From: an uncultured Elusimicrobia bacterium
GTDB taxonomy: Bacteria; Elusimicrobiota; Elusimicrobia; Elusimicrobiales; UBA9959
Assembly: GCA_903889965.1 (NCBI GenBank)
Contig: CAISZM010000040.1
Coordinates: 38,439 to 102,438, forward strand
DNA length: 64,000 nucleotides
Reading direction: 5' to 3'
The notes beneath the pieces were generated by a model, which was not told where the DNA came from, ran no database searches, and was given only the letters and a program-made list of their open reading frames with translations. Both the position numbers and the translations under genes were made by a program. This document shows positions 30,807-56,016 of this stretch, one piece after another. Every line of letters begins with the position of its first letter. Position 1 is the stretch's first letter.

Positions 30807-33222
<2,416 letters not shown>

Positions 33223-33251
<29 letters not shown>

Positions 33252-34581
33252 TTTTCACCTCTTCGGTCTTGGAAGCTTCTTCCTGCCCGGCCTGCTGCCC
33301 GTAGTTAGGATTTTCTTCAATGAATTTCTTGGCCCCGGCCATTATCTTCTGAGCTGTCTTCTCCCCTATGCCTTCGAGGGAGCACAGCTCTTCCTGGGTA
33401 AGCCCCGCCACGGTGCGTATATCCAGCACGTTCATCGTTATCAGGGTCTCGGCTACTTTGGCGCCTATGCCGTCGATCTTAAGCAGGTCCTGCATCGCCA
33501 TATCCGTGGTGCGCTTGTTGTCCTCGGAGCGCTGGCCTTCGGACTTAACCTCTATCTCCCAGCCGGTAAGGCGGCTGGCGAGACGGATATTCTGGCCCTC
33601 GCGGCCGATGGCCATGGCCAGCTGGTCGTCCGGCACTATGATCTGGGCGCGCTTGTTCTCCTTGTCCAGGACCTTCACGGAGCTGACCGTGGCGGGGGAG
33701 AAGGCTTTGGCTATCATCGTGAGGGTGTCCTCGATATAAGGGATAAGGTCTATTTTCTCGTTGGAAAGTTCGTTCATGATGACGCGTATGCGCGAGCCGC
33801 GCATACCCACGCAGGCGCCAACCGGGTCAACCTTCGGGGAGTTGCTGCGTACCAGAACTTTGGCGCGGAAGCCGGGGTCGCGGACGACGTCCACGATCTC
33901 CACCACTTTCTCCGCTATCTCCGGGACTTCTGATTCGAAGAGGGCTTTCAGGAAAGCGCCGGAGGCGCGGGAGAGGACTATCTGAAGCCCCTTGTTCTCT
34001 TTATCCACGCGGTGTATGATGGCGCGCACGCGCTGGTTGACGCTGTAATGTTCGCGGCGTATCTGTTCGGAAAAGGGTAGTATAGCTTCGGCTTTCCCAA
34101 GGTCGACGAAGATGTCGCGGCCGGCGACGTGGTGCACCAGGCCCGTAACCACCTCGCCCTCGCGGGGCTTGTACTCGTCGTAAACGCGAACTTTTTCGAT
34201 CTCGCGTATCTTCTGTATCAGAACCTGTTTGGCGGTCTGGGCCGCTATGCGGGAGAAATCCTGTATGGGCACGGGGATGTGGATATCGTCCCCGAGCTTT
34301 GCCTCGGGCTGGTGAACCTTCGCGTCGGCCAGGCTTATCTCGAGTTCGGGGGTGACCACGGGATCGGCCACTTTCTTCACGAGGAAACCTGCCATTTCGC
34401 CGGTGTCCGGATCTATGCCGGCCATGATCTGCGCCGTCTTGCCGAAATATTTGCGCAGCGCGCTCACCAGGGAGTCGCTGATGGTCTTGAACACGTCCTC
34501 GCGTTTTATGTTCTTCTCTCTTTCCAGCTGCTCAAGCGCCAGTAAAAGCTCCGATTTGTTTTTCTGTTCCTTGTTCGTCAT
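33223..34581 (-). CDS. nusA: transcription termination/antitermination factor NusA
   Basis: 452 aa with S1 and KH blocks ('RDPGFRAKVLV', 'VGACVGMRGSRI', 'AIGREGQNIRLASRLTGWEI'). The 3' end overlaps the infB start by 29 nt. Confidence 0.95.
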
Positions 34582-34652
34582 TTTATACCCCTGTTTTATC
34601 TCGCCATCCGCTTAACGTATTTCCCAGGGCCCGGGGCCCGGGGGGGTGGTGC

Positions 34653-35117
34653 TTATTTTCCCTTCAGGATCTCGTCATCGGCAGGATGCAGCCTCGCCTC
34701 GTCTATATCCTCAAGGTTGAATTTTACGCCGCCGGACAGGGTCAGCTGCCCGTTTTCAAAGCCGTCTATGGCGCCGTAATACACGCGCGCGCCGTTGACC
34801 GGCCGCTTCAGGCGGACCTTGACCTGCTTGCCCGTGAAGCGCTTGAAATCTTTTTCCTTCTTGATCACGCGGTCTATCCCGGGGGAGGAAACCTCCAGGA
34901 AATACCCGTTAGCGTAAAAATCGTTCATGTCCAGGCAGGCCCCGATCTTTGAGCTGAGGCTGCCGCAGTCATCCAGGTTCACACCGCCCTGCTCCCTGTC
35001 CACGAAAACCTGCAGCAGCGGCTTGCCGTTGTGGCTCGCCATGCGCAGGTCCACCAGTTCAAAACCGGTCGGCTCCAGCGTGGCGGATATCGCGCTCTCG
35101 ATTTTAGAGTTGTCCAT
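34653..35117 (-). CDS. rimP: ribosome maturation factor RimP
   Basis: 'LVDLRM...LQVFVD' and 'LEVSSPGIDRVIKKEKDFKRFTGKQVKV' fit RimP. I prefer the Met at 35117 (GGAAGGTG upstream) over the track start at 35171. Confidence 0.88.
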   Translation of the reverse strand: MDNSKIESAISATLEPTGFELVDLRMASHNGKPLLQVFVDREQGGVNLDDCGSLSSKIGACLDMNDFYANGYFLEVSSPGIDRVIKKEKDFKRFTGKQVKVRLKRPVNGARVYYGAIDGFENGQLTLSGGVKFNLEDIDEARLHPADDEILKGK

Positions 35118-35182
35118 AAAACACCTTCCGGGATGGCCTATTACAAAAAAAAGCGGCTGAACTTCAGCCACCTTCCTTAATT

Positions 35183-35541: not shown

Positions 35542-36945
35542 TTATTTAAGATTACGGGCGAAATACTCGAAGGCCCTGGCAAAAGGCTCCGGAGGCGCGC
35601 TCAGCACCCCCGCGCCCACCTGTCCCACCCCGGCCTTCTTGTGCGCCACACCGGTGTCGATGAAAGGCAGTATGCCGGACCGCGCCGCCTTTATTACGTC
35701 TATACCTGTTGGCGTACCGCGGAAATTCAGGTAAGGGATCTTGTAAATATTATTTTCGCCGGCGGTTATCTCGTACATCGCCAGCGTATAGCTGACCGCG
35801 TCCGCCGCCGTGCCGCCGACGAACTGGACGATAGCCGGCGCCGCGGCGATTGCGAATCCGCCCAGCCCGTTGGTCTCTGTTATCGCTGAGTCGCCTATGT
35901 CCGGATTCGCGTCGGCCTTGGAGTACCCGGGGAAATAAAGCGCGTCCGGCACGGGCGCCGGCCCGGTAAACCAGCGCCCTCCGGTGCCCGAGAGCTGCAC
36001 GCCGAAATCCGTCCCGTTCCTGGCCATCGCGACCACGAGGCTCGAATCCTTAACCCCGCGCCCCGCGTCCAGCGAGGCTTTGGAGAGGGCCATGGACAGG
36101 TTCAGGAAGAAATGATCATTGCCGTTGACGAAGTCCAGAACTTTAGCCGCCGTCTCCGGGTCGCGCGCCGTCCTTATCACCGCCGGCGCGATAGCCCGGT
36201 AGAAGAGCGAAGTGGCGGCGCGGTTGCGATTGTGAACCTCGTCGCCCATATGCAGCGCCTGCGCAACTATAGCCTTAAGGTCGATCTTGCCCAGGAACTC
36301 TATGGCCGCCTTCAGCGCGGGGTACAGCACGGTCTCCATCCACTTAAGCCGCTCTATCACCTCGGGAGAATAGGCGCCGTAGCGCAGCACCTTGCCCAGC
36401 CCCTCGTTCTGCGTGGCGTAGGCGTAATTCCCGGCGGCTTCGTTCTTTACGATAAAAACCGGCATGGAAGCGGAGATGATCCCGGCCATAGGCCCCACGG
36501 CGTTATGCTCGTGGCAGGGCGCGTACTTTATTTTGCCCGAGGCGGCCAGCCGCTCCGCCGCAGCGGGATCCTTGGCCAGGCCTTCGTACATCAAGGCGGC
36601 CATTATCCCGCCGCGCATTGGACCGCACATCCTGCCCCAGGTGACGGGGGGGCCGGCGTGGAGTATAAGGTCCTTCGCCATCCCGGGGATAACGTCCAGC
36701 GCCGTGCCCATGCCCGTCAGGACCGGCCTGGCCTCAAGCACGCGGGCGAGGGCCTTTTTATTTGCCCTCCCTATGCGCGCAGCGTGTCTGGATGTTTTAG
36801 CGAATAGCCCTGCCTCCCCGGAAAGGGGCGGCTTGAATTGCGCCTGTACGCTCTTTACGCCGCAGTCCGATAGCCCCTGCCGGAAAGATTCCAGGCCGAT
36901 GTTGATCACCTTCAACTCCGATCCGAATAATTTTGAAACAGCCAT
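35542..36945 (-). CDS. DUF1116-family protein (E. coli YlbE / AllG-like)
   Basis: 467 aa. It is collinear by eye with my recollection of E. coli YlbE: 'LHAGPP', 'HNAVGPMAGIISASMP', 'GDSAITETNGLGG', 'IDTGVAHKKAGVGQVGAG'. Confidence 0.85.
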   Translation of the reverse strand: MAVSKLFGSELKVINIGLESFRQGLSDCGVKSVQAQFKPPLSGEAGLFAKTSRHAARIGRANKKALARVLEARPVLTGMGTALDVIPGMAKDLILHAGPPVTWGRMCGPMRGGIMAALMYEGLAKDPAAAERLAASGKIKYAPCHEHNAVGPMAGIISASMPVFIVKNEAAGNYAYATQNEGLGKVLRYGAYSPEVIERLKWMETVLYPALKAAIEFLGKIDLKAIVAQALHMGDEVHNRNRAATSLFYRAIAPAVIRTARDPETAAKVLDFVNGNDHFFLNLSMALSKASLDAGRGVKDSSLVVAMARNGTDFGVQLSGTGGRWFTGPAPVPDALYFPGYSKADANPDIGDSAITETNGLGGFAIAAAPAIVQFVGGTAADAVSYTLAMYEITAGENNIYKIPYLNFRGTPTGIDVIKAARSGILPFIDTGVAHKKAGVGQVGAGVLSAPPEPFARAFEYFARNLK

Positions 36946-36992
36946 AAATTCTCCTTTCGATCAGCTGAGACGAATAAAAAGCGACAAACCCT

Positions 36993-38567
36993 TTAAGACC
37001 TTAGGCCTGCGCCCCGTGCCTTGCTCCCTGACAGCCTGATAATTTCCCCGGCCAGGCGGCAGGCCCCGGCGTTAGACGGCATCACCAGCACGCCCGCGGC
37101 CTCAAGCCCTTTCACCACCTTGGAGCGCGTCTGGGGATCGGTCTCGGTGCCGGTTACGGAAGCGATAATGGACAGTTCCCTGTTGCGCAGGAAAGCCTCC
37201 GTAATGGGGGGGGTAATATCCTCCAGCGGCCGCAGGTTAGATCCGTAGCCCAGTACAAGGTCCAGGAGCAGGACCGAAACCTCGGGCTTGGCGGCTTCGG
37301 AAACTATCATTTTACTGCGCAGCGTGAAGTCTATCATCGGGTGCGGCCGCCCTACGGTGAATTCGTCTTCTCCAAGATCTATCACGGCGTGGCCGCTGAG
37401 CTTCATAGAATCCCTGAGCCCGAACTTTTTGTCCAGCGGCGCGTTCGAGCGCACTTCGCCTATAAGCTCCGGCAATATAACCTGCGCTTCGCTGACGAAG
37501 GTGCCGCCGGAAAACAGGCCGCGCAGGCAGCGCGCCTTTTTCTTCTTAGCGGCCTCCGTTTTTGCCAGCTCCCCGGCCTTCAGGTTCATGTCATAAATGA
37601 TCTCCCTGGCTTTGGCAGGTTTCCAGCCTTTGGCCAGGCACACGGCCTTGTACGCGGCCTCTTCAAGCGTTTTGGCCGGGTAAAAGTCGCCTTTTATCTT
37701 TTCCTTTATTTCCCCGCCCAGGAAGACGGCCACTACGGGCTTGCGGATCTTGCCTATTTCCGCGGTTATTTTTTTCAGTATCGAAGGATGGGGGGGCTTT
37801 GAAACTATCACCAGCACCTCCGTGGCCGGGTCCGCGGCCAGCATCCTGAGACCTTCCAGCAGGGTTATTGCCCCGACCTCTATCTTAACGTCGCGCGAGC
37901 CGGTGCCGATAGCCTGGGAAATCCCGGCTCCCTCGTTGGAAATAAGCGCGGAGACTTCCTGCAGGCCGGTGCCCGAAGCCGCCACTATGCCGATATTGCC
38001 GCGCCGCACGGAGTTCGCGAACGCGATCGGCGCCCCGTTTATGATAGCCGTGCCGCAGTCCGGGCCCATAACCAGCAGGCCCCTTTTAACGCCTTCCCTC
38101 TTCAGGGCCACTTCTGTCTCGACCGGGACATTGTCGGAGAAGAGCATCACGTTCAGGCCGTTCTCGAGGCATTGCGCCGCGAGCGCGCCCGCGAACCTCC
38201 CGGCCACCGAGATCACGGCGAGGTTGGCTCCGGCGAGGGTTTTCAGCGCGTCCTCAAGGCCGGCGGCCTTGCGGTCCGAGCCGCCGGAGGACGCCGGTTT
38301 TTTATCAAGCAGCTCTTCCGCGGCCTTCAGCGCCGCCTCGGCGGCGCATATTGTGCGGGCGTTCACGGCGATGGCGAGGTCGTTGTCCGCGGCCTTGAGT
38401 ATCTCGGCGGTAAGCAGGCCGGAGGCCCGTATTATCCCCTTGTTCTCTTTGGTAGCCATGACAACGGCGGAATCTATTACCCCGTCGAGCGCGTTCAGTT
38501 TCTTCGCCACCTGCATCAGCGAAACGGAATCGAAATACGCGCCCTTTCTTATAATCGTCTTTATCAT
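36993..38567 (-). CDS. FdrA-family acyl-CoA-synthetase-like protein (E. coli FdrA / AllF-like)
   Basis: 524 aa. 'MIKTIIRKGAYFDSVSLMQVAKKL' mirrors the FdrA N-terminus. It has succinyl-CoA-synthetase-alpha-like CoA-binding/ligase blocks ('GPDCGTAIING', 'IGIVAASGTGLQE'). Confidence 0.85.
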   Translation of the reverse strand: MIKTIIRKGAYFDSVSLMQVAKKLNALDGVIDSAVVMATKENKGIIRASGLLTAEILKAADNDLAIAVNARTICAAEAALKAAEELLDKKPASSGGSDRKAAGLEDALKTLAGANLAVISVAGRFAGALAAQCLENGLNVMLFSDNVPVETEVALKREGVKRGLLVMGPDCGTAIINGAPIAFANSVRRGNIGIVAASGTGLQEVSALISNEGAGISQAIGTGSRDVKIEVGAITLLEGLRMLAADPATEVLVIVSKPPHPSILKKITAEIGKIRKPVVAVFLGGEIKEKIKGDFYPAKTLEEAAYKAVCLAKGWKPAKAREIIYDMNLKAGELAKTEAAKKKKARCLRGLFSGGTFVSEAQVILPELIGEVRSNAPLDKKFGLRDSMKLSGHAVIDLGEDEFTVGRPHPMIDFTLRSKMIVSEAAKPEVSVLLLDLVLGYGSNLRPLEDITPPITEAFLRNRELSIIASVTGTETDPQTRSKVVKGLEAAGVLVMPSNAGACRLAGEIIRLSGSKARGAGLRS

Positions 38568-38689
38568 ATGTTCTCCATAAAATAGCCGCTACGGCCCGCA
38601 AGCCCCGGATTTATATTCGCAAACAGCAAGCCGCCGGTCACGGGTACCCTGAGCGCCGCACGCACATCCTGTAACGCGCGGCCCGCGGC

Positions 38690-39560
38690 TCAAGGTGCCC
38701 GGAGGACATCCTGGAGCGCGAAGGCCAGCCCGGAGCAGAAATCGGCGCCCGAGGTATGGCCGCTCTGCAGCGCCGCTTTAGCGGCCGCCGCCAGCTCCCG
38801 GCGGTCGCGCCCCGCCAGCGCCAGCATCAGGCGGCGCACCTTGGCGTTGACCTTGCCGGCGTACGAGGAGCTGATAAAAGCGTTGGATATAAAGTTTCCT
38901 CCCTCGGAGTTGAGGAAAACAAGGTCCATCCTCTCACGGGTGTTGAACCGGAGGTTCACGAGCGCGAAATAGTAACCGGCAAGCAGGCCGCTCAGGAAAT
39001 CGTCCCCGGAGGGAGTAAGACCCATGCCTAAACCGCGCATCGTTTTTGCGCCGCGCGCGTAGTCGCCTGTCCGGAAATACGCCGCGCCCTTCTTGAACCG
39101 GGCCAGCATATTCTTTTCGAAAACCCCTGGAGAAATCCTTTTCCAGCGCCGTGTCGAAAATAAAGGCCAGGCTTTTGGGCTTTGAAAAACGGATAAGCAG
39201 GAGTATGAACACCAGCGTATTGCCCAGCACGGTCTCCGGTTCCGTTCCGGCCAGCAGCGGGACCCTGGAGGAATAAAGCGCGGCCGGGTCTTTGCGAAGG
39301 CGGTTTTCGTCGACGTAAAAACAGAACCGGGAGGCGCGGAGACGCTTGGCGCCCAGGGGGAGCTGCTTCATTACGACGTTTAGCGGTCCGGCACCCGTGC
39401 GCGGCGGCACGAGGGAAACTATGAGTTTACCTTTCCTGAAATTTATTGCATTGGCAAAGGCCGAATGCAGACGGTAGTCGCCATCCGGTATGCTGTCGCC
39501 GTATGAGATGAGGTCCATAGTGTGTGCGGGCGCGGGGCCTAAAACAATTCCCGAATTCAT
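38690..39560 (-). pseudogene. DUF2877-family protein (E. coli YlbF / AllH-like) split by a 1-nt frameshift near 39115-39135
   Basis: Track ORFs 38934-39560 (N-terminal part) and 38690-39109 (C-terminal part with 'GLGMGLTPSGDDFLSGLL') overlap in different frames. The junction lies in the G4/T4/A4 runs (minus strand ...TCCAGGGGTTTTCGAAAAGAA...). Removing one base gives one ORF of about 290 aa. Confidence 0.75.
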
Positions 39561-39576
39561 ACCGCGCTGCCCGCTG

Positions 39577-40338
39577 TTACATCCAGGGCATCTTTTTACG
39601 TTCGCCTATAAAAGGGAACCGCTCGCGGGTCCTGGCTACCAGCGCGCCGTCCAGCGGGGTTCCCGCGATAAAGATACCCTCTGAAGTCCCGCAGTCCAGA
39701 ACCACTTTGCCCAGCGGGTCATAGCACATGGAGTTCCCTGAATACTCCACTTTGCCCTCCATGCCGAGGCGGTCCACGCCTATACAATACGCCTGGTTTT
39801 CCACGGCGCGGGCGCGCAGCAGCGTCATCCACTGCTCCGCGCGGCGCATCGGCCAGGCGGCTATCACCACGTAGACATCGGCCGCGGAAGCCATGTTCCA
39901 GAACAGGTAGGGAAAGCGCAGATCGAAACAAACCGCCGGCATAACGCGCAGGCCCTCGAGCTCGAACACTTCCTGGCCGGAACCGGCGCTGTAGTGTTTG
40001 TCCTCTTCGCCGAAGGCGTAGAGGTGGATCTTGGAATAGGCGTTGACGCGGTTACCCTTACGGTCCAGGGTTATAAGTTTGTTGAAACCCTTTTCAACCC
40101 CGCCGTAGGAAATATTTATATTATTTTCCGCCGCAAGTCCCGCGAAGAAGGCGCGGTCCTCGTCGTTGAGTTCGGCCGCAGCGGTATTCATCGTAAAACC
40201 GGAAAGTGTCATTTCGGAAAATATAAGCCAGTCTATTTCCTTAACGCACTTGCAGGCATCAAGCAGTTCCTCTATCTTCTTTTTATTGGCCTCCTTGTCC
40301 TCCCACTTGATATCGTACTGGCAGATCGCTATTTTCAT
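39577..40338 (-). CDS. carbon-nitrogen hydrolase, YafV/omega-amidase-like
   Basis: 253 aa. The catalytic E-K-C contexts are 'LIFSEMTLSGF', 'YSKIHLY' and 'PAVCFDLRFP'. Length and layout resemble my recollection of E. coli YafV. Confidence 0.85.
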   Translation of the reverse strand: MKIAICQYDIKWEDKEANKKKIEELLDACKCVKEIDWLIFSEMTLSGFTMNTAAAELNDEDRAFFAGLAAENNINISYGGVEKGFNKLITLDRKGNRVNAYSKIHLYAFGEEDKHYSAGSGQEVFELEGLRVMPAVCFDLRFPYLFWNMASAADVYVVIAAWPMRRAEQWMTLLRARAVENQAYCIGVDRLGMEGKVEYSGNSMCYDPLGKVVLDCGTSEGIFIAGTPLDGALVARTRERFPFIGERKKMPWM

Positions 40339-40372
40339 AATGATACGTTCTCCGTGGATCGGTCAACCGCCC

Positions 40373-42793
40373 TTACCTGCGGCCTCTGACTTGTGACTTG
40401 CGCCTGTTCAGCATGGCAAGCGCCACTTTTTCTTTTGTGACAGGCATGGATTGTATCCTTACCCCGACGGCGTCGGCCACGGCGTTCGCTATAAGCGGGG
40501 CGGCCGGTATCATGGTGTGCTCTCCCACGCCGCGCGCGCCGTAGGGTCCGTCGGGCTGGGCTACCTCGATGATTATCGGAACCACCTTCTCGGGCATATC
40601 CATAACCGTAGGTATTTTGTAGTCCGAAAAGTTGGGGTTCAGCAGGCGCCCCTTCTCGTTGAAGCGCATGTCCTCGTAGAGCACGGTGGCGAAGCCCTGC
40701 AGCAAGCCGCCCACTATCTGGCCCCTTACAAGGTCGGGGTTTATGGCCTTGCCGCAGTCGACCGCCAGCACGGCTTTCTTTATCTTCATCTTGCCGGTCT
40801 CCCGGTCCACTTCCAGTATTATGCCGGCCGAGCCGGTAGTGTAATGCACGTTGGGATGGCCGCCTTGCCCCGTTTCCGGGTCGCTTATGGCCGAAGCGAA
40901 TTCCGGCATGAACATGCCGGTGCCCATTATGGGTCCGCCCTTGAAGGTGTGATCGTCGGCCTGTATGCCGTTGATGACGAAATCGCGCAGGCGGAGCTCG
41001 AATTCGGGCCGCGTGCGGCATTTAACTTTTTCGTCCTCGAGGTAGAGGGTGCTCTTGTCGAGGCAGTGCACACGCTGCACCAGGCCGAAGATCTTCTCCC
41101 TGGCCTCGATGGCCGCGCGCTTGACGGCGTTGCCGCAGCCCCAGGTAACGTGGGAGCCCACCGTCTGCCACTCGTAGGGGTTGCGGTCGGTATCCGGGGT
41201 CTCCACGCGTATCTTGGCTACGGGCACGCTCAGCACCTCGGACGCTATCTGGGCCATCACGGTCAGGAGGCCCTGCCCGATCTCCATGCCGGAAACAAGT
41301 ATGTTGATGCTGGCGTCCTCGTTAAATTTCAGGAAGGCGCTGGAACTGGCGTTCGGGGGCATGGCGGGGGACTTCCAGAAGCAGACCAGGGACTTGCCTA
41401 TGGCCTTCTTCGGGTCCTTGGATCTTTCTTTAACGCCCCATTTAATTTCCTTCTCCACTTTTTCTATGGCCTCGCGTATGCCGTTGGGATTCATGTGCGC
41501 GCCGTAGGGCAGAGTGTCGCCTTCCCGGATGGCGTTCCTTTTGCGGAAGGCCACCGAGTCCACCCCGAGCTTCTCCGCCATGCGCGTGATATGCGACTCC
41601 AGGCCGAAGAGAAATTCGGAATAGCCGAAGCCGCGGTAAGGCCCGCCGGGGGGGAGATTGGTATAGATGCACATGGAGTCGATGCTGAGATTGTCCACCC
41701 TGTAGGGACCGCTTGCGGAGAGGCCGGCCGCGTTGACGACGTTGGCGCCGTATTCCACGTAAGCGCCGGCGTCCCAGTAAAGCTTAAAATCCAGCGCGGT
41801 TATGCGCCCGTCCTTCTTTACGCCCATTTTCACCTTCGCCGTTACGCCCTGGCGCTGGTAGGTGTTGTAAAATTCCTGCGCGCGGCTCCACAGCACTTTG
41901 ATGGGACGGCCGGGAACCGACATGGCGAGCGCCGCCCCGATTATTTCCATGCTGACCCCGGCCTTGCCGCCGAAGCCGCCGCCGATGTAAGTGCTTATTA
42001 CCCGCACGTCCTTATGGCTGATGCCGAAGGGCTCGAGCGCCTGGGCGAAGACGTTCCTCTGGGTGAAAGGCGACTGGGAGGCGGTCCACATGGTGAGGCG
42101 GCCGGAATCGTCGTAGAGGCCTATGACGGAATGCGGCTCGATAGCGCAATGCGCGTAGCGCGGGACGCAGTAGGTGTCCTCCATGACGAGGTCGGCTTCC
42201 TTGAAGCCTTTGGCGAGGTCGCCCTTGCGGGTTTTGCGCCAATGGGCGATATTGGTGCCCGGCTGGGGGAAGAACCACGGCACATGACGGTAGCTCTTCA
42301 GGTCGGGGTGGACGAGGGGGGATTTTTTATCCAGGGCCTTTACGGGATCGAAGACAGGGGTGAGCTCCTCGTATTCCACCGCCACGAGGGCGGCACCGCG
42401 CAGGGCCGTTTTGGGGTCGGTGGCGACCACGGCGGCCACCTGCTCTCCGACGAAGCGCACCGTGTCGGTGGCGAAGACATAGCGATCGGTCATGTAGAGG
42501 CCGAATTTATGGGTGAAACTGCGGCCGGTGACCACTTTTACCACGCCGGGCAGTTTCTCGGCTTTGGAAACGTCTATGGACTTTATCTTCGCGTGGGCGA
42601 GGGGGCTTTCCACCACGGCGGCGTAGAGCAGGCCGGGGCCGAATTCCAGGTCGTCGGTATACTTGGCGGCGCCTTTTATCTTTTCCCAGCCATCCACGCG
42701 CAGCACGCTTTTGCCGACCACATCCAGTTCCTCGACGCCTTTTCCGGACTTAGCCCCCTTCCCGGGTTTAGCTATAATTTTCTGTAGGTCCAT
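40373..42793 (-). CDS. molybdopterin-binding large subunit of an XDH/CoxL-family hydroxylase
   Basis: 806 aa from the Met at 42793 (GAGGAT upstream); the track start at 42919 is an extension. It has 'GKSVLRVDGWEKIKGAAKYTDD', 'GGGFGGK' and 'ARGVGEHTMIPAAPLIANAV'. Confidence 0.9.
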   Translation of the reverse strand: MDLQKIIAKPGKGAKSGKGVEELDVVGKSVLRVDGWEKIKGAAKYTDDLEFGPGLLYAAVVESPLAHAKIKSIDVSKAEKLPGVVKVVTGRSFTHKFGLYMTDRYVFATDTVRFVGEQVAAVVATDPKTALRGAALVAVEYEELTPVFDPVKALDKKSPLVHPDLKSYRHVPWFFPQPGTNIAHWRKTRKGDLAKGFKEADLVMEDTYCVPRYAHCAIEPHSVIGLYDDSGRLTMWTASQSPFTQRNVFAQALEPFGISHKDVRVISTYIGGGFGGKAGVSMEIIGAALAMSVPGRPIKVLWSRAQEFYNTYQRQGVTAKVKMGVKKDGRITALDFKLYWDAGAYVEYGANVVNAAGLSASGPYRVDNLSIDSMCIYTNLPPGGPYRGFGYSEFLFGLESHITRMAEKLGVDSVAFRKRNAIREGDTLPYGAHMNPNGIREAIEKVEKEIKWGVKERSKDPKKAIGKSLVCFWKSPAMPPNASSSAFLKFNEDASINILVSGMEIGQGLLTVMAQIASEVLSVPVAKIRVETPDTDRNPYEWQTVGSHVTWGCGNAVKRAAIEAREKIFGLVQRVHCLDKSTLYLEDEKVKCRTRPEFELRLRDFVINGIQADDHTFKGGPIMGTGMFMPEFASAISDPETGQGGHPNVHYTTGSAGIILEVDRETGKMKIKKAVLAVDCGKAINPDLVRGQIVGGLLQGFATVLYEDMRFNEKGRLLNPNFSDYKIPTVMDMPEKVVPIIIEVAQPDGPYGARGVGEHTMIPAAPLIANAVADAVGVRIQSMPVTKEKVALAMLNRRKSQVRGRR

Positions 42794-42902
42794 ATTATCC
42801 TCGCTATACCGCGCCGAGATCTTATTGCAAGTGTCTGTTCTTACAAGGGAGCCGCCGCCGGGTTTTACGCGCTCCGGGACCGTGCTTTGCCGGGAAGCGG
42901 GC

Positions 42903-43610
42903 TTACGCCGGCTTCGCAACCCGGCGCTGCGGCCTGAAATAGCGCGTCATCCTTCGAAAACAGAGAGCGGCATTATAAAACGCAAGCCTCGATCTCTCGG
43001 CAAGACTTACTTTCAGGATGTCCTTGCGGGCATAAACACTGTCGGACTTATCCTTGAACCAAACCGCGTAATTATTGGTCTTCATCCAATTCCGTATTTC
43101 CTTCAAGAAGGGGTTCAAATAGTATTTGCCGTGCGTTTCGATCGATATCACCGCGGGACGGCTGACCATATGCTTTAAGACGAACCATTCACTGCCCTCA
43201 ACGTCTATGACAGCCAGATCTATCCTGCCGTTATCCAGCGAAGCGAATCGGCAGGAATCGACAACGAAACTATCCTTATCGGAAGGAACATAGCCGTCAT
43301 TCACCACGGCGGGCGTATCGTGCCCGCCGATAAATGTGGAAGATGCGCAGTGATACAGCTCGACAGAGCCCTCTGTGTCCGACACGGCTTTATTTACTAT
43401 TTTTACGCGGCTATTGCCGCTGAAATATTCGCGTATCTTTTGAACATAACCGGGATCCGCGTCGACCAGCAGCGCCTCGCATCCGTCATTGATAAAATCC
43501 AGGACCATGGAAGTTTCCGGAAGATAAACGCCGACTTCCGCGACATAAGCGGGCTTGAACGGTTTTTTCGCACAGCGCAGATAAATTTCCTTTTTTTGCA
43601 TGAGGCGCAC
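42903..43610 (-). CDS. FkbM-family methyltransferase
   Basis: 235 aa starting at GTG 43610 or ATG 43601. 'IDLAVIDVEGSEWFVLKHM' is the FkbM-type block. Hand count over 43021-43200 gives 84/180 = 47% GC, against 36/60 = 60% at 42301-42360. Confidence 0.75.
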   Translation of the reverse strand: MRLMQKKEIYLRCAKKPFKPAYVAEVGVYLPETSMVLDFINDGCEALLVDADPGYVQKIREYFSGNSRVKIVNKAVSDTEGSVELYHCASSTFIGGHDTPAVVNDGYVPSDKDSFVVDSCRFASLDNGRIDLAVIDVEGSEWFVLKHMVSRPAVISIETHGKYYLNPFLKEIRNWMKTNNYAVWFKDKSDSVYARKDILKVSLAERSRLAFYNAALCFRRMTRYFRPQRRVAKPA

Positions 43611-43688
43611 TGCCCTTTACCCGTTTTCCCGCTGCTTCCGGCCCGCCTTAAGAATTGCCCTCATCTTTTGGAGGGCCGCCGCCGGAAA

Positions 43689-44156
43689 CTATTTCTCCCT
43701 GGCCGCTTCCTCTATGGCCTCGACTATCGGTTCGTAGCCCGTGCAGCGGCAAAGGTTGCCGGCTATGGCCTCTTTAATATCATGCTTAGTTGGCCTGGGG
43801 TCCTTTTCAAGCAGTTCCGTGGCGGAGAGTATTATCCCGGGGGCACAGAAGCCGCACTGGAAGGCGTTCTTCTCGTGGAATTTTTTCTGCAGCCGCTGCG
43901 TCCACTTGCGGGTGTTGGCGCCTTCGAGCGTCACGATCTCCGAGCCGTCGGCCTCCACCGCGAGGGCGAGGCACGAGCGTATGGTTTTGCCGTTCATCAG
44001 CACGGTGCAGGTGCCGCAGTCTCCCCGGTCGCACCCCACTTTGGGACTTTTGATGCCAAGCTTCCCGCGCAGGACGTCAAGCAGCACGTCGCTCGGCTCG
44101 ACCGTCAAAGAAACCTTTTCACCGTTAAGTTTGAATTGTATATTGTGAAGTTTCAT
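43689..44156 (-). CDS. [2Fe-2S]-binding small subunit of XDH/CoxS-family hydroxylase
   Basis: 155 aa from the Met at 44156. It has 'GCDRGDCGTCTVLMNG', 'QCGFCAPG' and 'NLCRCTGY'. The track start at 44246 is an extension. Confidence 0.92.
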   Translation of the reverse strand: MKLHNIQFKLNGEKVSLTVEPSDVLLDVLRGKLGIKSPKVGCDRGDCGTCTVLMNGKTIRSCLALAVEADGSEIVTLEGANTRKWTQRLQKKFHEKNAFQCGFCAPGIILSATELLEKDPRPTKHDIKEAIAGNLCRCTGYEPIVEAIEEAAREK

Positions 44157-44169
44157 TTTGTATGGCTCC

Positions 44170-45063
44170 TTAACAGATGTTGCCCTCGCCGTATTTCGGC
44201 CCCTTGCCGAAAAGCCGGGCCACGGCCGTTTCAAGCCCGCGCTCAAGCATTATCTGCGCCATGTGCAGGCGGTACTCTTTGGAGGAGCGGATATCGCTGA
44301 TAGGGGAGATCTCCCCCAGTATGGCTTCTTTGGCGCCGGCCAGGATCTTCGCCGAAAGCGTATTGCCGTTCAGCACCGCCTCGGTTTTGGGGCAGCGGGA
44401 GGGTTTGGGGCCAAGCGCGCAGGCGGCGACGCGGTAGGTCTTGTCCGCGAAAGCCGCGACTGCTATCCCGCCCTGAGCCAGGTCCTCTCCTTCGTAGCGG
44501 GAAAGCTTCATGTAGCAGCCGGCGTGGCTGCCGGCCGGCTGGCGCATTTCAACGGCGGTGACTATCTCCTCCGGCAGCAGGGCGGTTTTCTTCGGGCCGG
44601 TGAACCAGTCCGCGATCGCTATGCGCCGCTCCCCGTTTATGCCGCGGGCCACTACTTCGGCGCCGTAAACCGCCAGCGCCGGGGCGGAATCGGCGGAGGG
44701 TACCGCTGAACATATGTTGCCGGCCAGCGTGGCCCGGTTGCGCACGCCCGTGGAGGCGATGGTAAGCGAGGCTTCCCAAAGCAGCGGGAACCTGCTTTTT
44801 ACGAGCGCGGAGCCTATAAGGTCGGAAAAAGTGACCAGGGCGCCGATACGCAGAACTCCGCCTTTAAGAGCGAGCCCGGCCAGCTCCTCAAGGGCTTTCA
44901 GGTCCACGATCACGTCGGGCCGGGCGATGTTCTCTTTAAGGTGCACCACCAGGTCCGTGCCGCCTGCTAGCGCCCGCGCTTTTTCGCGGTAAAGCGAAAA
45001 GACATGGAGGGCTTCGTCCATGTCTTTAGGTTTGACGTACTCAAATTCAGCGGTAATAGGCAT
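44170..45063 (-). CDS. FAD-binding medium subunit of XDH/CoxM-family hydroxylase
   Basis: 297 aa with 'ALAGGTDLVVHLKE' and 'TLAGNICSAVPSADSAPAL'. Confidence 0.9.
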   Translation of the reverse strand: MPITAEFEYVKPKDMDEALHVFSLYREKARALAGGTDLVVHLKENIARPDVIVDLKALEELAGLALKGGVLRIGALVTFSDLIGSALVKSRFPLLWEASLTIASTGVRNRATLAGNICSAVPSADSAPALAVYGAEVVARGINGERRIAIADWFTGPKKTALLPEEIVTAVEMRQPAGSHAGCYMKLSRYEGEDLAQGGIAVAAFADKTYRVAACALGPKPSRCPKTEAVLNGNTLSAKILAGAKEAILGEISPISDIRSSKEYRLHMAQIMLERGLETAVARLFGKGPKYGEGNIC

Positions 45064-45153
45064 AATTCATCTCCAGCTCAAAGTGCGGAACGGATAGTGC
45101 GGAGCGCAGGTAAAAATCGCCCTCCGCCGCCAGCTATCCGCGCTTAACTCCCG

Positions 45154-45969
45154 TTACGCCGTCCAGGCCACGACGCGGCCCATGGCCGACTCAAGCTCAA
45201 TGCCCTTCAGGGGGAAGAAGCCCAGCCAGCAGCGTTTATTGGAAAGTTTTTCGATGTCGCCGCCGAGGTTCTCGGCGTGCACGAGGCGTTTCGGGAAAAG
45301 CTTCAGGTGCATCACCTGATAGTATTCCTCGCTGGGGAACATCTCGTCCCATTTTTTGCCGTAGTTCTCCACCAGCTTGTTCTCGGCCTCGGTGAACAGC
45401 TTCGGATGCCAGTTGCGGATTATGGTGTTCATGGGGTGGTCGGCCGAGCCGCAGTCCACGCCTATCCACTTGAATTTCATCGCGAGCGCCCACTTATGGA
45501 ATTTGGGGCCCGGCCCCGGGTGCTTGCAGAAATACCGCACTTCGTCACATGTGTTTTTTTCATACCAGGCGTATTTATGGTATCCGGTATTGATTATTAA
45601 AATATCGCCCTTGCGGATATCGGCGCGTTTCATGAGCATCTCAGGCTCATAAAGGTCGTAATCCCCCACGTCTTTTGAGATATCCACAACTACGGCGTTG
45701 CCTATCCATTCCTTCATTGGCACCTCGCCTATGGTGCGCCCGGCGCTGTAAAAATGGATCTCACCGTCCATATGCGTGCCCACATGGTTGGAAGTCGTCA
45801 TTATCTGGCCGTTGGCGCCCTGGCCCATATGCGCGCCGGCTATGCGCTTGAAATACTGGAGCTGCAGCGGCATGTAGCTCGGCCACGGGGGGGTATGGAT
45901 GCTCAGCGGCTGGGTAAGGTCGTACATCTTCGCCTTTTCCATGAATTTGATGAAGTCGTTGGGTCTCAT
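45154..45969 (-). CDS. cyclase-family metal hydrolase (kynurenine formamidase / isatin hydrolase family)
   Basis: 271 aa. The HxGTHxDxxxH motif is 'HVGTHMDGEIH', and 'IGVDCGSADHP' is also present. A strong SD (GGAGGAAAA) lies upstream. Confidence 0.85.
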   Translation of the reverse strand: MRPNDFIKFMEKAKMYDLTQPLSIHTPPWPSYMPLQLQYFKRIAGAHMGQGANGQIMTTSNHVGTHMDGEIHFYSAGRTIGEVPMKEWIGNAVVVDISKDVGDYDLYEPEMLMKRADIRKGDILIINTGYHKYAWYEKNTCDEVRYFCKHPGPGPKFHKWALAMKFKWIGVDCGSADHPMNTIIRNWHPKLFTEAENKLVENYGKKWDEMFPSEEYYQVMHLKLFPKRLVHAENLGGDIEKLSNKRCWLGFFPLKGIELESAMGRVVAWTA

Positions 45970-46216: not shown

Positions 46217-47965
46217 CTATTTTATTTCGGCCTTCAGCTCCTTGAGTTTAGCCGGGACCTCGTCCAGCTTCCAGCGCAGCGCCGTTTTTTCGGCGCGGCG
46301 CTTGAATTCGCATTCCCCGTCTTTCAGGGTCTTGGAGCTTACCACTACGCGCCAGGGCAGGCCTATCAGGTCCGCGTCCTTGAACTTCACGCCAGGACGC
46401 TCGTCCCGGTCGTCCCAGAGCGCTTCCATACCCTCGGCCTGTATGGCTGAGCAGATGGCGGCGGAAGCCTCGGCGACGGCCTTATCCTCGCTCTCTATGC
46501 TGATCAGCGAGAATTCGAAAGGCGCTATGGCGGGAGGCCAGATTATGCCCCACTCGTCGTGCCCCTGCTCTATTGCGGCGGCCACGGTCCGCGTCACGCC
46601 TATGCCGTAACAGCCCATCACCATCGGCATTTCCTTCTGGTGCTCGTCCAGGAAATTACACTTCAGCGACTTGGAATACTTTGTGCCGAGTTTGAAAGTC
46701 TGCCCCACTTCTATGCCGCGCGTGAAGCCGAAGGGCTTCGCGCACTTGGGACACAGGTCGCCTGCCGCGGCCACGTGGATATCGGCGAAAGAATCCGGGT
46801 TGTAATCGCGCCCGAGGTTGATGCCTGTGGCGTGCGTGTCGTTCTTGTTTGCGCCGGAGACGCCGTTAAAGACGTTCTTCAGCGCGTTATCGGCTATCAC
46901 GGTCTTAAGGGGCCGTGTGTCCTTGCCGGGAACGTAGCGCTCCTTTATACCTACCGGGCCGGCGAAACCGGCGGGGCAGCCGGCTATAGCCTCGTAGATG
47001 TGCTGCGGAGCCTTTTCGAGGTTAGCCGCTCCGATGACGCGGCGCAGCTTGTTCTCGTTAAGTTCGTGGTCGCCGCGCACCAGCGCCATGACGGGTTCCC
47101 CGTCGGCCAGGAAAAACAGCGTCTTTATGAACTGCTTAGGATTCATCTTGAGGAACTTGGCTACATCCTCTACGGTGTAAAGCCCCGGGGTCGGGACCTC
47201 CTTGACCGGCTGGAGCTTGGAGGGGTCCGCCTGGCGGGCGGGTTGCTCGGAGACTTCGGCCTTCTCGGTATTGGCCGCGTAGCCGCAGCCGGGGCAGAGC
47301 GCTATCTCGGCCTCGCCGGTATCGGCTATAACCATGAACTCATGGGAGTGGTTGCCGCCTATCGGGCCGCTGTCGGCCTCCACAGGTTTGAAGGTAAGGC
47401 CGCAGCGGGTGAAGATCTTCTCGTAGGCGGAATAGAGTATTCCGTACCATTTTTGCGCGTCCTCGTCCGAGGCGTGGAAGGAGTAGGCGTCCTTCATCAG
47501 GAACTCGCGCGAACGCATCACGCCGTAACGCGGCCGTATCTCGTCGCGGAACTTCAGGCCGAACTGGTAAAGCAGTATCGGGAGCTGCCGGTAGGAGCTG
47601 ACGTCACGGCGGACCATGTTGGTTATAACTTCTTCGGCGGTGGGGGCGAAGCAGAATTCGGAATCCTTGCGATCGGTCAGGCGCAGCAGCTCCTTGCCGT
47701 AGATCTGCCAGCGGCCGGTTTCCATCCACAGTTCTTTGGGCTGTATGACCGGAAGGCGCACCTCCTGGCCGTCCACGCGGTTGAGCTCCGAACGAACTAT
47801 GTTCTCGACCTTCTGCAGTACGCGCAGGCCGAGCGGCAGCCACTCGTAAATGCCGCTGGCGAGCTTTCGGATCATGCCGGCGCGGAACATAAGCTTCACG
47901 GAAACGTTGTCTGCGTCCTGCGGCGCCTCGCGCAGCGTAGGGAGAAAATATTTGGAAAGTTTCAT
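46217..47965 (-). CDS. proS: proline--tRNA ligase (bacterial type with editing domain)
   Basis: 582 aa with 'FRDEIRPRYGVMRSREFLMKDAYSF' and 'MGCYGIGVTR'. Confidence 0.96.
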   Translation of the reverse strand: MKLSKYFLPTLREAPQDADNVSVKLMFRAGMIRKLASGIYEWLPLGLRVLQKVENIVRSELNRVDGQEVRLPVIQPKELWMETGRWQIYGKELLRLTDRKDSEFCFAPTAEEVITNMVRRDVSSYRQLPILLYQFGLKFRDEIRPRYGVMRSREFLMKDAYSFHASDEDAQKWYGILYSAYEKIFTRCGLTFKPVEADSGPIGGNHSHEFMVIADTGEAEIALCPGCGYAANTEKAEVSEQPARQADPSKLQPVKEVPTPGLYTVEDVAKFLKMNPKQFIKTLFFLADGEPVMALVRGDHELNENKLRRVIGAANLEKAPQHIYEAIAGCPAGFAGPVGIKERYVPGKDTRPLKTVIADNALKNVFNGVSGANKNDTHATGINLGRDYNPDSFADIHVAAAGDLCPKCAKPFGFTRGIEVGQTFKLGTKYSKSLKCNFLDEHQKEMPMVMGCYGIGVTRTVAAAIEQGHDEWGIIWPPAIAPFEFSLISIESEDKAVAEASAAICSAIQAEGMEALWDDRDERPGVKFKDADLIGLPWRVVVSSKTLKDGECEFKRRAEKTALRWKLDEVPAKLKELKAEIK

Positions 47966-47981
47966 GGTCAGACTCCTAAAA

Positions 47982-48101
47982 ACGATTCAAGATTCCAGAT
48001 TGAAGATTCAAGATTACCGAACAAAGAGCGGACATAATGCAGTTAAATATTTCCAGTATTACAGATTCTTCAATCTTCAATCTGATAATCTTCAATTCTT
48101 C
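47982..48101. repeat. AT-rich inverted array of 7-bp-periodic pentamer repeats (AGATT / AATCT)
   Basis: The left arm has (C/A)GATT at 47982, 47989, 47996, 48003 and 48010, an exact 7-nt period. The right arm has AATCT at 48071, 48078 and 48086, and AATTC at 48093. The arms are about 85% reverse-complementary over about 34 bp with a spacer of about 43 nt. On the minus strand the hairpin is followed by UUUUU, AGGAG and the proS ATG. Confidence 0.8.
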
Positions 48102-48109
48102 GTATCGGC

Positions 48110-49210
48110 TTATTTGGAAGAGCGTATCTTACGTATAACTTCATTAACCCACTCGGACTCTTTTATTACTTTTATCTGCTTTCCCTTCTCTATCCAGATC
48201 CCGCGGCCCTTGCCGCCGGCCACGCCGAAATCGGCAGAACGCGCCTCGCCGGGCCCGTTGACCACGCAGCCCATCACGGCGATCTTCATACCCTCGGACT
48301 TCTCGCGCAGCCCGCGGTTGGAATAGATGCGGTCCTCCAGTTCATGTATAACCTTTCCTACGTTGACCTGGCAGCGGCCGCATGTGGGACAGGAAACGAG
48401 GTCGGGACCGTAACTGCGCAGCCCCAGGCTCTTCAGTATCTCATAGGCGGCGCGCACCTGCATGGCGGGGTCCTCGGTGAGGGAAACCCTGACGGTGTCG
48501 CCTATGCCCTGTGAGAGCAGGAGCCCTATGCCCAGCGAGGACTTTACCGTGCCGGCCAGGAAACTTCCTGCCTCGGTAACGCCCAGGTGCAGCGGGATGT
48601 CGGACTTCTCCGAGAAAAGGACATTGGCCATCACGGTCCGCTCTATATCGTCGGCTTTCAGAGAAACCACTATATCCCTGAAGCCGAACCGCTCGAGCGC
48701 GCGCACCTCGTCCAGGGCTTCCTTGACCATAAGCCTGGCCCAGTCATAAGGCTGCCAGGCCGGTTTCGGGTTATCCTTAAGGGCTTTGAGGGAACCGGCG
48801 TTAACACCTATCCTTATCGGAACCCCTGCGGACTTGCACGCCTTGACGACTTCCTTGACCTTGTCGCGCTCGCCGATATTTCCGGGGTTGATGCGCACCT
48901 TGTCTACGCCCTGGCGCACGGACTCCACCGCCAGCCGCCAGTCAAAATGTATGTCGGCCACCAGGGGGATGGAGATAGCGCGCTTGATGCGGCCCAGGTT
49001 CGAAGCCGCCTGCATGTCCGGCACGGCGACGCGTATTATCTCGCATCCCGCCTCCTCCAGACGGCGTATCTGGTCCACCGTGGCTTTAAGGTCGCGGGTG
49101 TCGGTATTGCACATAGACTGCACCGACACGGGGTTGCTGCCGCCTATGGCGAAGCGGCCGGCTTTGACTACGCGGGTCTTGCGGGATTTGGCGTGGCAGG
49201 CGCAGGCCAT
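48110..49210 (-). CDS. ispG: 4-hydroxy-3-methylbut-2-en-1-yl diphosphate synthase
   Basis: 366 aa with 'VQSMCNTDT', 'RVAVPD', 'SCPTCGRC' and 'VMGCVVNGPGE'. Confidence 0.95.
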   Translation of the reverse strand: MACACHAKSRKTRVVKAGRFAIGGSNPVSVQSMCNTDTRDLKATVDQIRRLEEAGCEIIRVAVPDMQAASNLGRIKRAISIPLVADIHFDWRLAVESVRQGVDKVRINPGNIGERDKVKEVVKACKSAGVPIRIGVNAGSLKALKDNPKPAWQPYDWARLMVKEALDEVRALERFGFRDIVVSLKADDIERTVMANVLFSEKSDIPLHLGVTEAGSFLAGTVKSSLGIGLLLSQGIGDTVRVSLTEDPAMQVRAAYEILKSLGLRSYGPDLVSCPTCGRCQVNVGKVIHELEDRIYSNRGLREKSEGMKIAVMGCVVNGPGEARSADFGVAGGKGRGIWIEKGKQIKVIKESEWVNEVIRKIRSSK

Positions 49211-49211
49211 T

Positions 49212-50288: not shown

Positions 50289-50301
50289 TTTTGCCCTTTT
50301 A

Positions 50302-51477: not shown

Positions 51478-51527
51478 TGGTTGCGCTGACCGCGCCGAAA
51501 TCTTTTTATGCCGCCGGCCGGGCCGCT

Positions 51528-52337: not shown

Positions 52338-52341
52338 AGCG

Positions 52342-53618: not shown

Positions 53619-53698
53619 AAAACCGCCTCCTGTGCCGTTGCGGGAAAGGCCCGCCGCACATGGTAATTATATTATATTAGGGGGAGCGTTTGGAGGCG

Positions 53699-54975: not shown

Positions 54976-54985
54976 AAGGCAGGTT

Positions 54986-55011
54986 TAGAGTGTAGAGATT
55001 AGAGTTGAGAG
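54986..55011. repeat. four 7-bp-periodic pentamer repeats (TAGAG x3, GAGAG) in the tsf-pyrH spacer
   Basis: TAGAG is at 54986, 54993 and 55000, and GAGAG at 55007. CTCTA copies at 55050 and 55071 lie on the other side. GTGTAGAG/CTCTACAC and a GC-rich inner stem give a long imperfect hairpin across 54991-55058. Confidence 0.7.
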
Positions 55012-55067
55012 CGGGCGCCGAAAGAACATTTGAGGCGTCCCGCCCTCCGCTCTACACTTCCGCGAGC

Positions 55068-55970: not shown

Positions 55971-56016
55971 AAATACTCTCCTTTATAAAGTAGGCTGTTG
56001 TGCTGTAAAAAAGGGG

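Follow-up and report, generated by a model that had tools for sequence, protein, structure and literature searches.

A cluster of eight conserved genes in an uncultured Elusimicrobia bacterium may well encode a phosphorolytic variant of oxidative pyrimidine degradation, taking uracil or thymine by way of barbiturate to malonate. The cluster lies on the minus strand of a 64,000-nucleotide stretch of contig CAISZM010000040.1, here called the window, and combines a cyclase-fold metal hydrolase (cyc), a three-subunit molybdenum (Mo) hydroxylase, a C-N hydrolase, and an FdrA/DUF1116/DUF2877 module related to AllFGH of E. coli. In the proposed route, the Mo/flavin adenine dinucleotide (FAD)/[2Fe-2S] enzyme would hydroxylate C6 of uracil or thymine with oxygen from water, giving barbiturate or 5-methylbarbiturate. 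The cyclase-fold hydrolase would open the barbiturate ring to the acyl-urea 3-oxo-3-ureidopropanoate, as barbiturase does in actinomycetes. The FdrA/AllG/AllH complex would then use phosphate to cleave 3-oxo-3-ureidopropanoate into carbamoyl phosphate and malonamate, and the YafV-like C-N hydrolase would convert malonamate to malonate and ammonia. What is observed is the gene content, its conservation, the domain and active-site features, and the displacement of the cyclase by another ring-opening enzyme; from these we infer the substrate and all four reactions.

A pyrimidine substrate is more likely than a purine or an allantoin-type ureide because the Mo enzyme lacks Glu802 and Arg880 of xanthine dehydrogenase (XDH), because a barbiturase replaces the cyclase in related operons, and because a RutG/UraA-like permease accompanies the cluster in Bryobacterales. 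With a pyrimidine as substrate, 3-oxo-3-ureidopropanoate would take the place of oxalurate as the ureide, and malonamate that of oxamate as the amide. An earlier note, made from the letters of the window, had proposed ring hydroxylation, ring opening, carbamoyl transfer from an oxalurate-like ureide, and hydrolysis of an oxamate-like amide. Its sequence of reactions fits the comparative evidence, but the identity of its intermediates gives way to the likelier pyrimidine derivatives. The genes, and one candidate promoter, are as follows (window positions).

35542..36945, minus strand: AllG/DUF1116 subunit; PF06545, 330 bits; 46% identity to E. coli AllG
36993..38567, minus strand: AllF/FdrA subunit, proposed acyl-ureide carbamoyltransferase; NF004760, 491 bits (cut-off 433); 40% identity to E. 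coli AllF
38690..39560, minus strand: AllH/DUF2877 subunit; PF11392, 79 bits, C-terminal open reading frame (ORF) only; 34% identity to E. coli AllH
39577..40338, minus strand: YafV-like C-N hydrolase, proposed malonamate amidase; PF00795 CN_hydrolase, 128 bits
40373..42793, minus strand: molybdenum cofactor (MoCo)-binding large subunit (MoL), proposed uracil/thymine dehydrogenase; PF01315, PF02738, PF20256
42903..43610, minus strand: FkbM-type methyltransferase, outside the conserved system; PF05050, weak at 34 bits
43689..44156, minus strand: [2Fe-2S] subunit (FeS) of the Mo hydroxylase; PF01799 and PF00111; ATG start giving MKLHNIQ
44170..45063, minus strand: FAD-binding subunit of the Mo hydroxylase; PF00941 and PF03450; no NCBIfam equivalog at cut-off
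45154..45969, minus strand: cyclase-fold metal hydrolase cyc, proposed barbiturate ring-opening amidohydrolase; PF04199, 114 bits
46061..46088, minus strand: sigma-70-like promoter candidate between proS and cyc, TTGAAC-16-TG-TAGAAT; a consensus match only, Elusimicrobia promoters being uncharacterised

Barbiturase in place of the cyclase

Two Acidimicrobiia loci (L079 and L091; L numbers denote fetched loci) encode a MoL that is 65-70% identical to that of the window and carries the same pocket residues. Their operon lacks cyc and begins with a ring-opening amidohydrolase of the AtzD/TrzD/barbiturase family, followed by AllH-AllF-AllG-FAD-FeS-MoL. The amidohydrolase scores 497 bits against TIGR02714 and 510 bits against the solved barbiturase 5hwe, compared with 308 and 252 bits against cyanuric acid hydrolases. 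Barbiturases are separated from cyanuric acid hydrolases by an Asn/His/Lys/Val/Ala signature (Peat et al., PMC3758960), and the aligned Acidimicrobiia enzyme has it in full, as Asn195, His321, Lys325, Val345, and Ala346. In no locus examined did cyc and barbiturase occur together, and no barbiturase homologue was found in the window. The simplest reading is a non-orthologous displacement in which the cyclase does the job of barbiturase. Thus, we propose cyc as a barbiturase analogue because barbiturase stands in its place in orthologous operons.

The barbiturase context extends beyond operons with a Mo enzyme. A barbiturase-AllH-AllF-AllG core without one lies beside a CDA-fold deaminase in L092, and the best 120 barbiturase homologues all come from Acidimicrobiia. 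Embleya and Nonomuraea served as cultured stand-ins for this context. In Embleya sp. NBC_00888 (L098, 10988-29064), genes for a coenzyme A (CoA)-transferase, a carboxyltransferase, and carbamate kinase precede a barbiturase-like gene, and a PucR-NCS2-FAD-FeS-MoL-CoxG-CN-hydrolase set lies 6 kb from that operon. Embleya is a cultured organism suited to testing the idea that barbiturate is converted to carbamoyl phosphate.

The cyclase itself has the features of a metal-dependent hydrolase. Its HVGTHMDGEIH motif (HxGTHxDxxxH), pointed out when the cluster was first described, does align with the metal motif of the kynurenine formamidase KynB, and in the clusters the FAD subunit gene invariably comes immediately after cyc. 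An AlphaFold2 model gave a usable overall fold (predicted template modeling score 0.73), and a Foldseek search with it returned 33 significant matches, all cyclase-fold hydrolases, with isatin hydrolase giving the best TM-score at about 0.6. Isatin hydrolase and KynB share the fold and the metal motif with cyc, and isatin hydrolase also opens a cyclic amide. Cyc, however, is only 13-17% identical to them, has a longer C-terminal half, and belongs to a separate subfamily with about 2,900 members, which share 75-95% identity among themselves. Against the kynurenine formamidase equivalog TIGR03035, it scores 53 bits, short of the cut-off of 223. In Chloroflexi, cyc (L086, 10001-11421; L088, 37-1464) is a tandem two-copy fusion in which the metal motif of the first copy is degenerate (NSVGTHLVGERAF), and it is paired with CoxG and a different Mo enzyme that is only 29-32% identical.

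Features of the Mo enzyme bear on the same question. The three subunits have the domain architecture of the Mo hydroxylase superfamily (FAD_binding_5/CO_deh_flav_C, Fer2/Fer2_2, and Ald_Xan_dh_C/MoCoBD_1/MoCoBD_2), and MoL is about equally distant from 4-hydroxybenzoyl-CoA reductase (4-HBCR), XdhA, and CoxL. MoL scores 512 bits against the NCBIfam model of 4-HBCR alpha (cut-off 995), 502 against XdhA, and 426 against PucD, such that every equivalog falls below its cut-off, and the XdhA, PucD, and XdhB models all stay under theirs for the Mo enzyme as a whole. The best solved relative is 4-HBCR alpha at 326 bits, followed by CoxL-type proteins. With bovine XDH numbering fixed by a check against 1fo4 and carried over to MoL by alignment, we found that the catalytic Glu1261 and Phe914 are retained and that Ala stands in place of Glu802, Arg880, and Thr1010, and Pro in place of Phe1009. 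Because the xanthine-binding Glu802 and Arg880 are gone while the catalytic Glu is kept, the protein is a Mo hydroxylase but not a xanthine dehydrogenase, and canonical XDH was rejected on these residues. Identity with 4-HBCR was likewise rejected, as all three subunits miss its cut-offs (alpha, 512 versus 995; gamma, 154 versus 258; beta, 114 versus 405), and only residues 5-119 of the FAD subunit match the beta model, with no sign of the 4-HBCR-specific [4Fe-4S] insert. The enzyme thus resembles XDH, CoxL, and 4-HBCR in its layout of FAD, two [2Fe-2S], and MoCo subunits and in its catalytic Glu and Phe914, and differs from them at positions 802, 880, 1009, and 1010 and in passing no equivalog. 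The pocket residues of MoL are identical between cyclase-type and barbiturase-type clusters.

Transporters associated with the cluster and its variants point to a nucleobase substrate. In 8 Bryobacterales loci, the gene immediately after moL encodes an NCS2 permease, which scores 390 bits to RutG, 366 to UraA, and 222 to PbuX. Moreover, a Bmp-type nucleoside ABC transporter follows the Chloroflexi variant cluster, and genes for a cyclase of 45% identity, an XDH-family enzyme, and an SLC23 permease are linked on a haloarchaeal plasmid.

Proposed acyl-urea cleavage and amide hydrolysis, and other candidate substrates

In E. coli, AllFGH, discovered only recently, has been proven to act as an oxamate carbamoyltransferase, cleaving the N-acyl-urea oxalurate (PMC11326118), and the product of barbiturase is 3-oxo-3-ureidopropanoate (PMC3758960). 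The latter is the next higher homologue of oxalurate, one CH2 longer. The window encodes AllF, AllG, and AllH together, the same three subunit families as in E. coli, and the reaction proposed for them is likewise phosphorolysis of an N-acyl-urea to carbamoyl phosphate and an amide. Unlike the E. coli genes, those of the window have no allK or other carbamate kinase gene nearby, do not lie downstream of genes leading from allantoin to oxalurate (allB, allC, allD, and allE are missing upstream), and share their operon with genes for a Mo hydroxylase and a ring-opening hydrolase. The substrate proposed for them also differs, being 3-oxo-3-ureidopropanoate instead of oxalurate, and allH is frameshifted.

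AllFGH-like modules occur with other hydrolases as well. Plasmid pSR8 of Aminobacter sp. SR38 (L093, 59842-73654) and more than 100 enterobacterial plasmids carry the order hypothetical-fdrA-DUF1116-ring-opening amidohydrolase-carbamate kinase-amidohydrolase-BMP ABC transporter-DUF2877, and this conjugative-plasmid cluster looks like a mobile, uncharacterised cyclic-ureide pathway. It resembles the present system in that its AllFGH-like module comes with an amidohydrolase that would open a trioxo six-membered ring, but it has a carbamate kinase and a transporter and lacks the Mo hydroxylase and the cyclase. Its AtzD-family ring-opening hydrolase is only 46% identical to the barbiturase-type enzyme of Acidimicrobiia. 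A plasmid of Peptoclostridium acidaminophilum (L095, 731922-742525) has the order PucR-xanthine permease-cysteine (isochorismatase-type) hydrolase-xanthine permease-DUF2877-fdrA-DUF1116-carbamate kinase, an AllFGH-like module with yet another hydrolase and with nucleobase permeases.

Assignment of the C-N hydrolase to malonamate is the weakest step of the model. The intact Glu-Lys-Cys triad reported before holds up in alignments to structures 3p8k and 2e11, as Glu42-Lys103-Cys137. The likeness to YafV stands as the best NCBIfam match (NF007757, 142 bits) but not at the level of an equivalog, for which the cut-off is 249. The protein thus resembles E. coli YafV and omega-amidase in family and triad and differs from them in its score and in its proposed substrate, which is malonamate (or oxamate) instead of 2-oxoglutaramate. 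The assignment draws on the family, on the fixed place of the gene beside allH, which it adjoins in 43 Elusimicrobia-type loci, and on the amide hydrolases that other variants carry: Chloroflexi have a different CN hydrolase, encoded between AllF and AllG, Verrucomicrobia have an amidase-signature enzyme, and pSR8 has an amidohydrolase. The Verrucomicrobia amidase was considered as a malonamidase and rejected, as its best PDB matches are urethanases and GatA and malonamidase E2 reaches only 84 bits. Pfam Amidase (amidase-signature) matched none of the nine cluster products, and the rest of the window was not searched for ureidomalonase.

A purine-derived or imidazole-type ring might instead be hydroxylated, with cyc opening a five-membered cyclic ureide (for instance, parabanate or 5-hydroxyhydantoin) to oxalurate, AllFGH acting as a true oxamate carbamoyltransferase, and the C-N hydrolase acting as an oxamate amidase, which is near what was first proposed for this cluster. 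We consider such a purine or ureide route unlikely. AllF and AllG do share 40% and 46% identity with the enzyme proven in E. coli, FdrA exceeds its NCBIfam cut-off, the structural matches of cyc include isatin hydrolase, an opener of a five-membered alpha-keto-lactam, and P. acidaminophilum keeps AllHFG and carbamate kinase beside annotated xanthine permeases and a PucR regulator. Moreover, YafV-type enzymes act on alpha-keto-acid amides. The Mo subunit, however, is without Glu802, Arg880, and Phe1009, and no XDH equivalog passes. Neither the window nor the related loci contain allantoin or ureidoglycolate genes, cyc is replaced by a barbiturase that has the Bar signature and acts on a six-membered ring, and the attached NCS2 permease is RutG/UraA-like, not PbuX-like. 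Finally, the thiolase, carboxyltransferase, and CoA-transferase found as partners suggest a product with a C-C backbone.

A six-membered ring of another kind is very unlikely but deserves mention. In a route for s-triazines or aza-pyrimidines, the Mo enzyme would convert a dioxo-triazine (for example, 5-azauracil) to cyanuric acid, cyc would open that ring to carboxybiuret, and the AllFGH-like enzyme would turn (carboxy)biuret into carbamoyl phosphate and allophanate or urea. On conjugative plasmids, that of Aminobacter sp. SR38 among them, genes of the AtzD/TrzD family occur in linkage with fdrA, DUF1116, DUF2877, and carbamate kinase; we take this strain to be an atrazine degrader. In addition, the Acidimicrobiia enzyme scores 458 bits against the NCBIfam AtzD model, above the cut-off of 360, and in nitrifiers allFGHK has triuret and biuret genes as neighbours (PMC12625717). 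The Acidimicrobiia enzyme is nonetheless far closer to barbiturase (510 versus 308 bits) and has five of five Bar-type specificity residues. Moreover, dioxo-triazines are rare in nature, yet the cluster is widespread and 70-95% conserved, and thiolase and CoA genes would be senseless for a substrate without C-C bonds.

A 250-amino-acid protein, c23 (1,561 members, 75-90% identical), is fixed in clusters outside Elusimicrobia, where it was found in 16 loci (for example, L082, 3931-4683; L090, 4018-4764; L091, 18666-19424), and has no Pfam or NCBIfam match. Its AlphaFold2 model was too poor for a fold search (predicted local distance difference test, 46.6). The N-terminal half of the long Chloroflexi cyc was considered as a c23 relative and rejected; it is unrelated and belongs to the tandem cyc fusion. 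Genes for an archaeal-type thiolase and a DUF35 protein usually follow c23, and some clusters are accompanied by AMP-forming ligase, CoA-transferase, thiolase, and DUF35 genes. Our guess is that thiolase, DUF35, and c23, the occasional AMP-ligase or CoA-transferase, and the carboxyltransferase of Embleya take part in further handling of the malonyl unit.

The same partners could be read as signs of a CoA-thioester pathway, in which the Mo enzyme would be 4-HBCR-like or hydroxylate a heteroaromatic acyl-CoA, the FdrA-like protein would be a nucleoside diphosphate-forming acyl-CoA synthetase, and cyc and the C-N hydrolase would serve as amidases downstream. We give this little credence. The best PDB and NCBIfam match of the Mo subunit is 4-HBCR alpha, FdrA has succinyl-CoA-ligase-type domains, and AMP-forming ligase, CoA-transferase, thiolase, and DUF35 genes do lie beside some clusters. 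The 4-HBCR score of 512 is far under 995, however, and the beta match covers only the first ~115 residues. No CoA ligase is present in most clusters, that of the window included, and AllFGH of E. coli has been shown to be a carbamoyltransferase. Finally, a CoA-thioester pathway would leave the barbiturase displacement and the nucleobase transporters unexplained.

Organization, conservation, and genomic setting

The nine consecutive minus-strand ORFs at 35542-45969 were reported before and were found again here, with families assigned by Pfam and NCBIfam profile searches. The gaps of 13-122 nt were likewise reproduced when ATG starts were used (47, 122, 16, 34, 109, 78, 13, and 90 nt). A scan for terminators found them no commoner than in shuffled sequence. 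Of the DUF2877 gene, the presence was borne out but not a single intact frame. allH is split into two overlapping ORFs, 38934-39560 and 38690-39109, and alignment to orthologues from L012, L044, and L017 places a single extra base, causing a +1 frameshift, in the run AGGGG at 39124-39128. The frameshift may be either a real inactivating mutation that makes allH a pseudogene or a homopolymer sequencing error.

The conserved unit comprises eight genes, not nine, because the FkbM gene is a passenger without a counterpart elsewhere. The earlier note had counted it as a member, but tblastn found no homologue in any other fetched locus, and FkbM is a strain-specific passenger at a variable site between FeS and moL. 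This gap (window 42794-43688) is an insertion hot spot in Elusimicrobia operons, with inserts of up to 5 kb that encode a DUF6036 nucleotidyltransferase, an ORF6N-like protein, a 23S-rRNA-IVS four-helix protein, or a small lipoprotein in other loci (L002, L003, L007, L021, L031, and L046).

To follow the eight genes across genomes, one genome per species was scanned, giving 80 loci with close Mo-subunit relatives (69-92% identity), onto which the window proteins were mapped by tblastn. The closest relatives, at 82-92% identity, come from Elusimicrobia metagenome-assembled genomes, and the genome of the window is of groundwater type. Where at least 3.5 kb was available upstream of moL (n=58), FeS and FAD genes were present in 54 loci and the cyclase in 52. 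In moL-anchored loci with full flanks, meaning at least 8 kb upstream and at least 6 kb downstream (n=36), cyc and AllG were each found in 34, FdrA in 32, a detectable AllH in 28, and the C-N hydrolase in 21. The order in Elusimicrobia is cyc-FAD-FeS-[variable]-MoL-cnh-allH-allF-allG, and that in Acidobacteriota, Verrucomicrobiota, Ignavibacteria, and others is allH-allF-allG-cyc-FAD-FeS-MoL. Altogether the cluster spans at least seven bacterial phyla, being found in Elusimicrobiota, Acidobacteriota, Verrucomicrobiota, Zixibacteria, Actinomycetota, and Ignavibacteria, with the variant in Chloroflexi, and cyc (71-95%), MoL, and AllG are unusually conserved across phyla. Separately, L057 and L061 (also L053 and L064) encode Mo-subunit orthologues of about 75% identity; within 10 kb of them, the FAD, FeS, cyclase, and AllFGH genes are all missing.

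Because the gene set was kept through rearrangement across phyla, chance juxtaposition, which the earlier note had named as a way for its proposal to fail, is ruled out. A chance grouping or decaying operon with no common pathway could point to the frameshifted allH, the foreign FkbM gene, the placement between housekeeping operons, and an uninformative terminator scan, but it is scarcely credible given that the same eight families recur in two orders in several phyla, with cyc, moL, and AllG at 70-95% identity, and that the frameshift, one base within a run of G, may be an artefact of sequencing.

Housekeeping genes at 30807-35171 and 46217-56896 flank the cluster on the same strand. They belong to an otherwise conserved run that the cluster parts into two blocks, rpsB-tsf-pyrH-SIS-frr-uppS-cdsA-dxr-rseP-ispG-proS on the side of cyc and rimP-nusA-infB-nrnA-truB-ribF on the other, and most related Elusimicrobia loci have the same insertion site between them. 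Beyond ribF, and convergent with it, lies a dihydropyrimidinase/D-hydantoinase-like gene on the plus strand (26475-27866) that scores 380 bits against TIGR02033, just below the cut-off of 393. Upstream of it are an aspartate kinase gene and a 253-amino-acid ORF (25384-26145) without a family match. The hydantoinase had been mentioned before as lying 8 kb away, and we found no link between it and the cluster: it is on the opposite strand with six housekeeping genes between, and the related loci were too short to cover its position. At 8000-18000, the window has a G+C content of 0.50-0.56, compared with about 0.60, and glycan-synthesis genes, including a WecG-type glycosyltransferase and a Wzy_C O-antigen ligase-like gene. 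This segment may have been horizontally acquired.

Strength of the pyrimidine assignment and its implications

Several observations weigh against oxidative pyrimidine degradation as the function of the cluster. We know of no identified genes for uracil dehydrogenase (EC 1.17.99.4) and of no reference sequence, and a literature search found no published identification of such genes. The assignment of the Mo enzyme as a uracil/thymine dehydrogenase is made from context only, and its closest solved relative is 4-hydroxybenzoyl-CoA reductase. Cyc is remote from characterised enzymes, with scores of 38 bits for KynB and 23 for isatin hydrolase, residues 23-79 of its model, metal motif included, are of low confidence, and it is found alone at 76% identity in some genomes, such that it may have another or broader role. 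The Verrucomicrobia amidase has no special likeness to malonamidase E2, allH carries a frameshift in the window, and thiolase, DUF35, and c23 outside Elusimicrobia have roles that the model leaves unexplained.

The genetic context of the cluster is also incomplete. The window cluster has neither a transporter nor a regulator, just as first reported. E. coli AllK as a tblastn query matched nothing in the window or in the related loci fetched by then. The earlier remark that the cluster itself has no carbamate kinase thus holds more widely, and none of the cyclase-type clusters among these loci has such a gene nearby. The amino-acid kinase gene at 24000-25286 was considered as a carbamate kinase and rejected, being an aspartate kinase. 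Carbamoyl phosphate made without a nearby kinase could still enter biosynthesis or be used by a kinase encoded elsewhere.

The oxidative breakdown of pyrimidines has been known since the 1950s and is regarded as rare, limited to a few actinomycetes. All enzyme families of the present cluster are already known, and the first two reactions match that pathway. As summarised in PMC3758960 from the work of Soong et al., the classical Rhodococcus/actinomycete pathway consists of uracil/thymine dehydrogenase, barbiturase, and ureidomalonase. The route proposed here would share the steps from uracil to barbiturate and on to 3-oxo-3-ureidopropanoate, but it would differ in that ring opening is assigned to an unrelated cyclase-fold metal hydrolase. 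It would differ also at the last classical step, which is hydrolytic and yields urea and malonate, whereas here cleavage would be phosphorolytic and yield carbamoyl phosphate and malonamate. Compared with the ureidomalonase route, no urease would be needed and the energy-rich carbamoyl group would be kept. A full-text literature search found no published description of FdrA/DUF1116/DUF2877 with a cyclase and a Mo hydroxylase and none of ureidomalonate phosphorolysis; the possibility that the gene set belongs to an already described operon, which had been raised against the first proposal, thus found no support there.

We tentatively suggest a urease-independent, energy-conserving oxidative pyrimidine pathway, widespread among uncultured soil and groundwater bacteria, that would reveal the genes of uracil/thymine dehydrogenase, an independent cyclase-fold barbiturase, and 3-oxo-3-ureidopropanoate as a second physiological substrate of AllFGH-type enzymes. 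If so, the Mo hydroxylase would provide the first candidate genes for the long-orphan uracil dehydrogenase, and the cyclase-fold barbiturase would have arisen independently of the Toblerone-fold enzyme. Three families now annotated generically or misleadingly, as "cyclase", "acyl-CoA synthetase FdrA", and "xanthine dehydrogenase family", are concerned. AllFGH-type enzymes would be general, modular acyl-ureide phosphorylases paired with different ring-opening hydrolases. The pathway would be common in Elusimicrobia, Ignavibacteria, Verrucomicrobia, Acidobacteria, Acidimicrobiia, and Chloroflexi, and instead of urea it would yield carbamoyl phosphate, from which ATP can be made or the synthesis of arginine and pyrimidines supplied.

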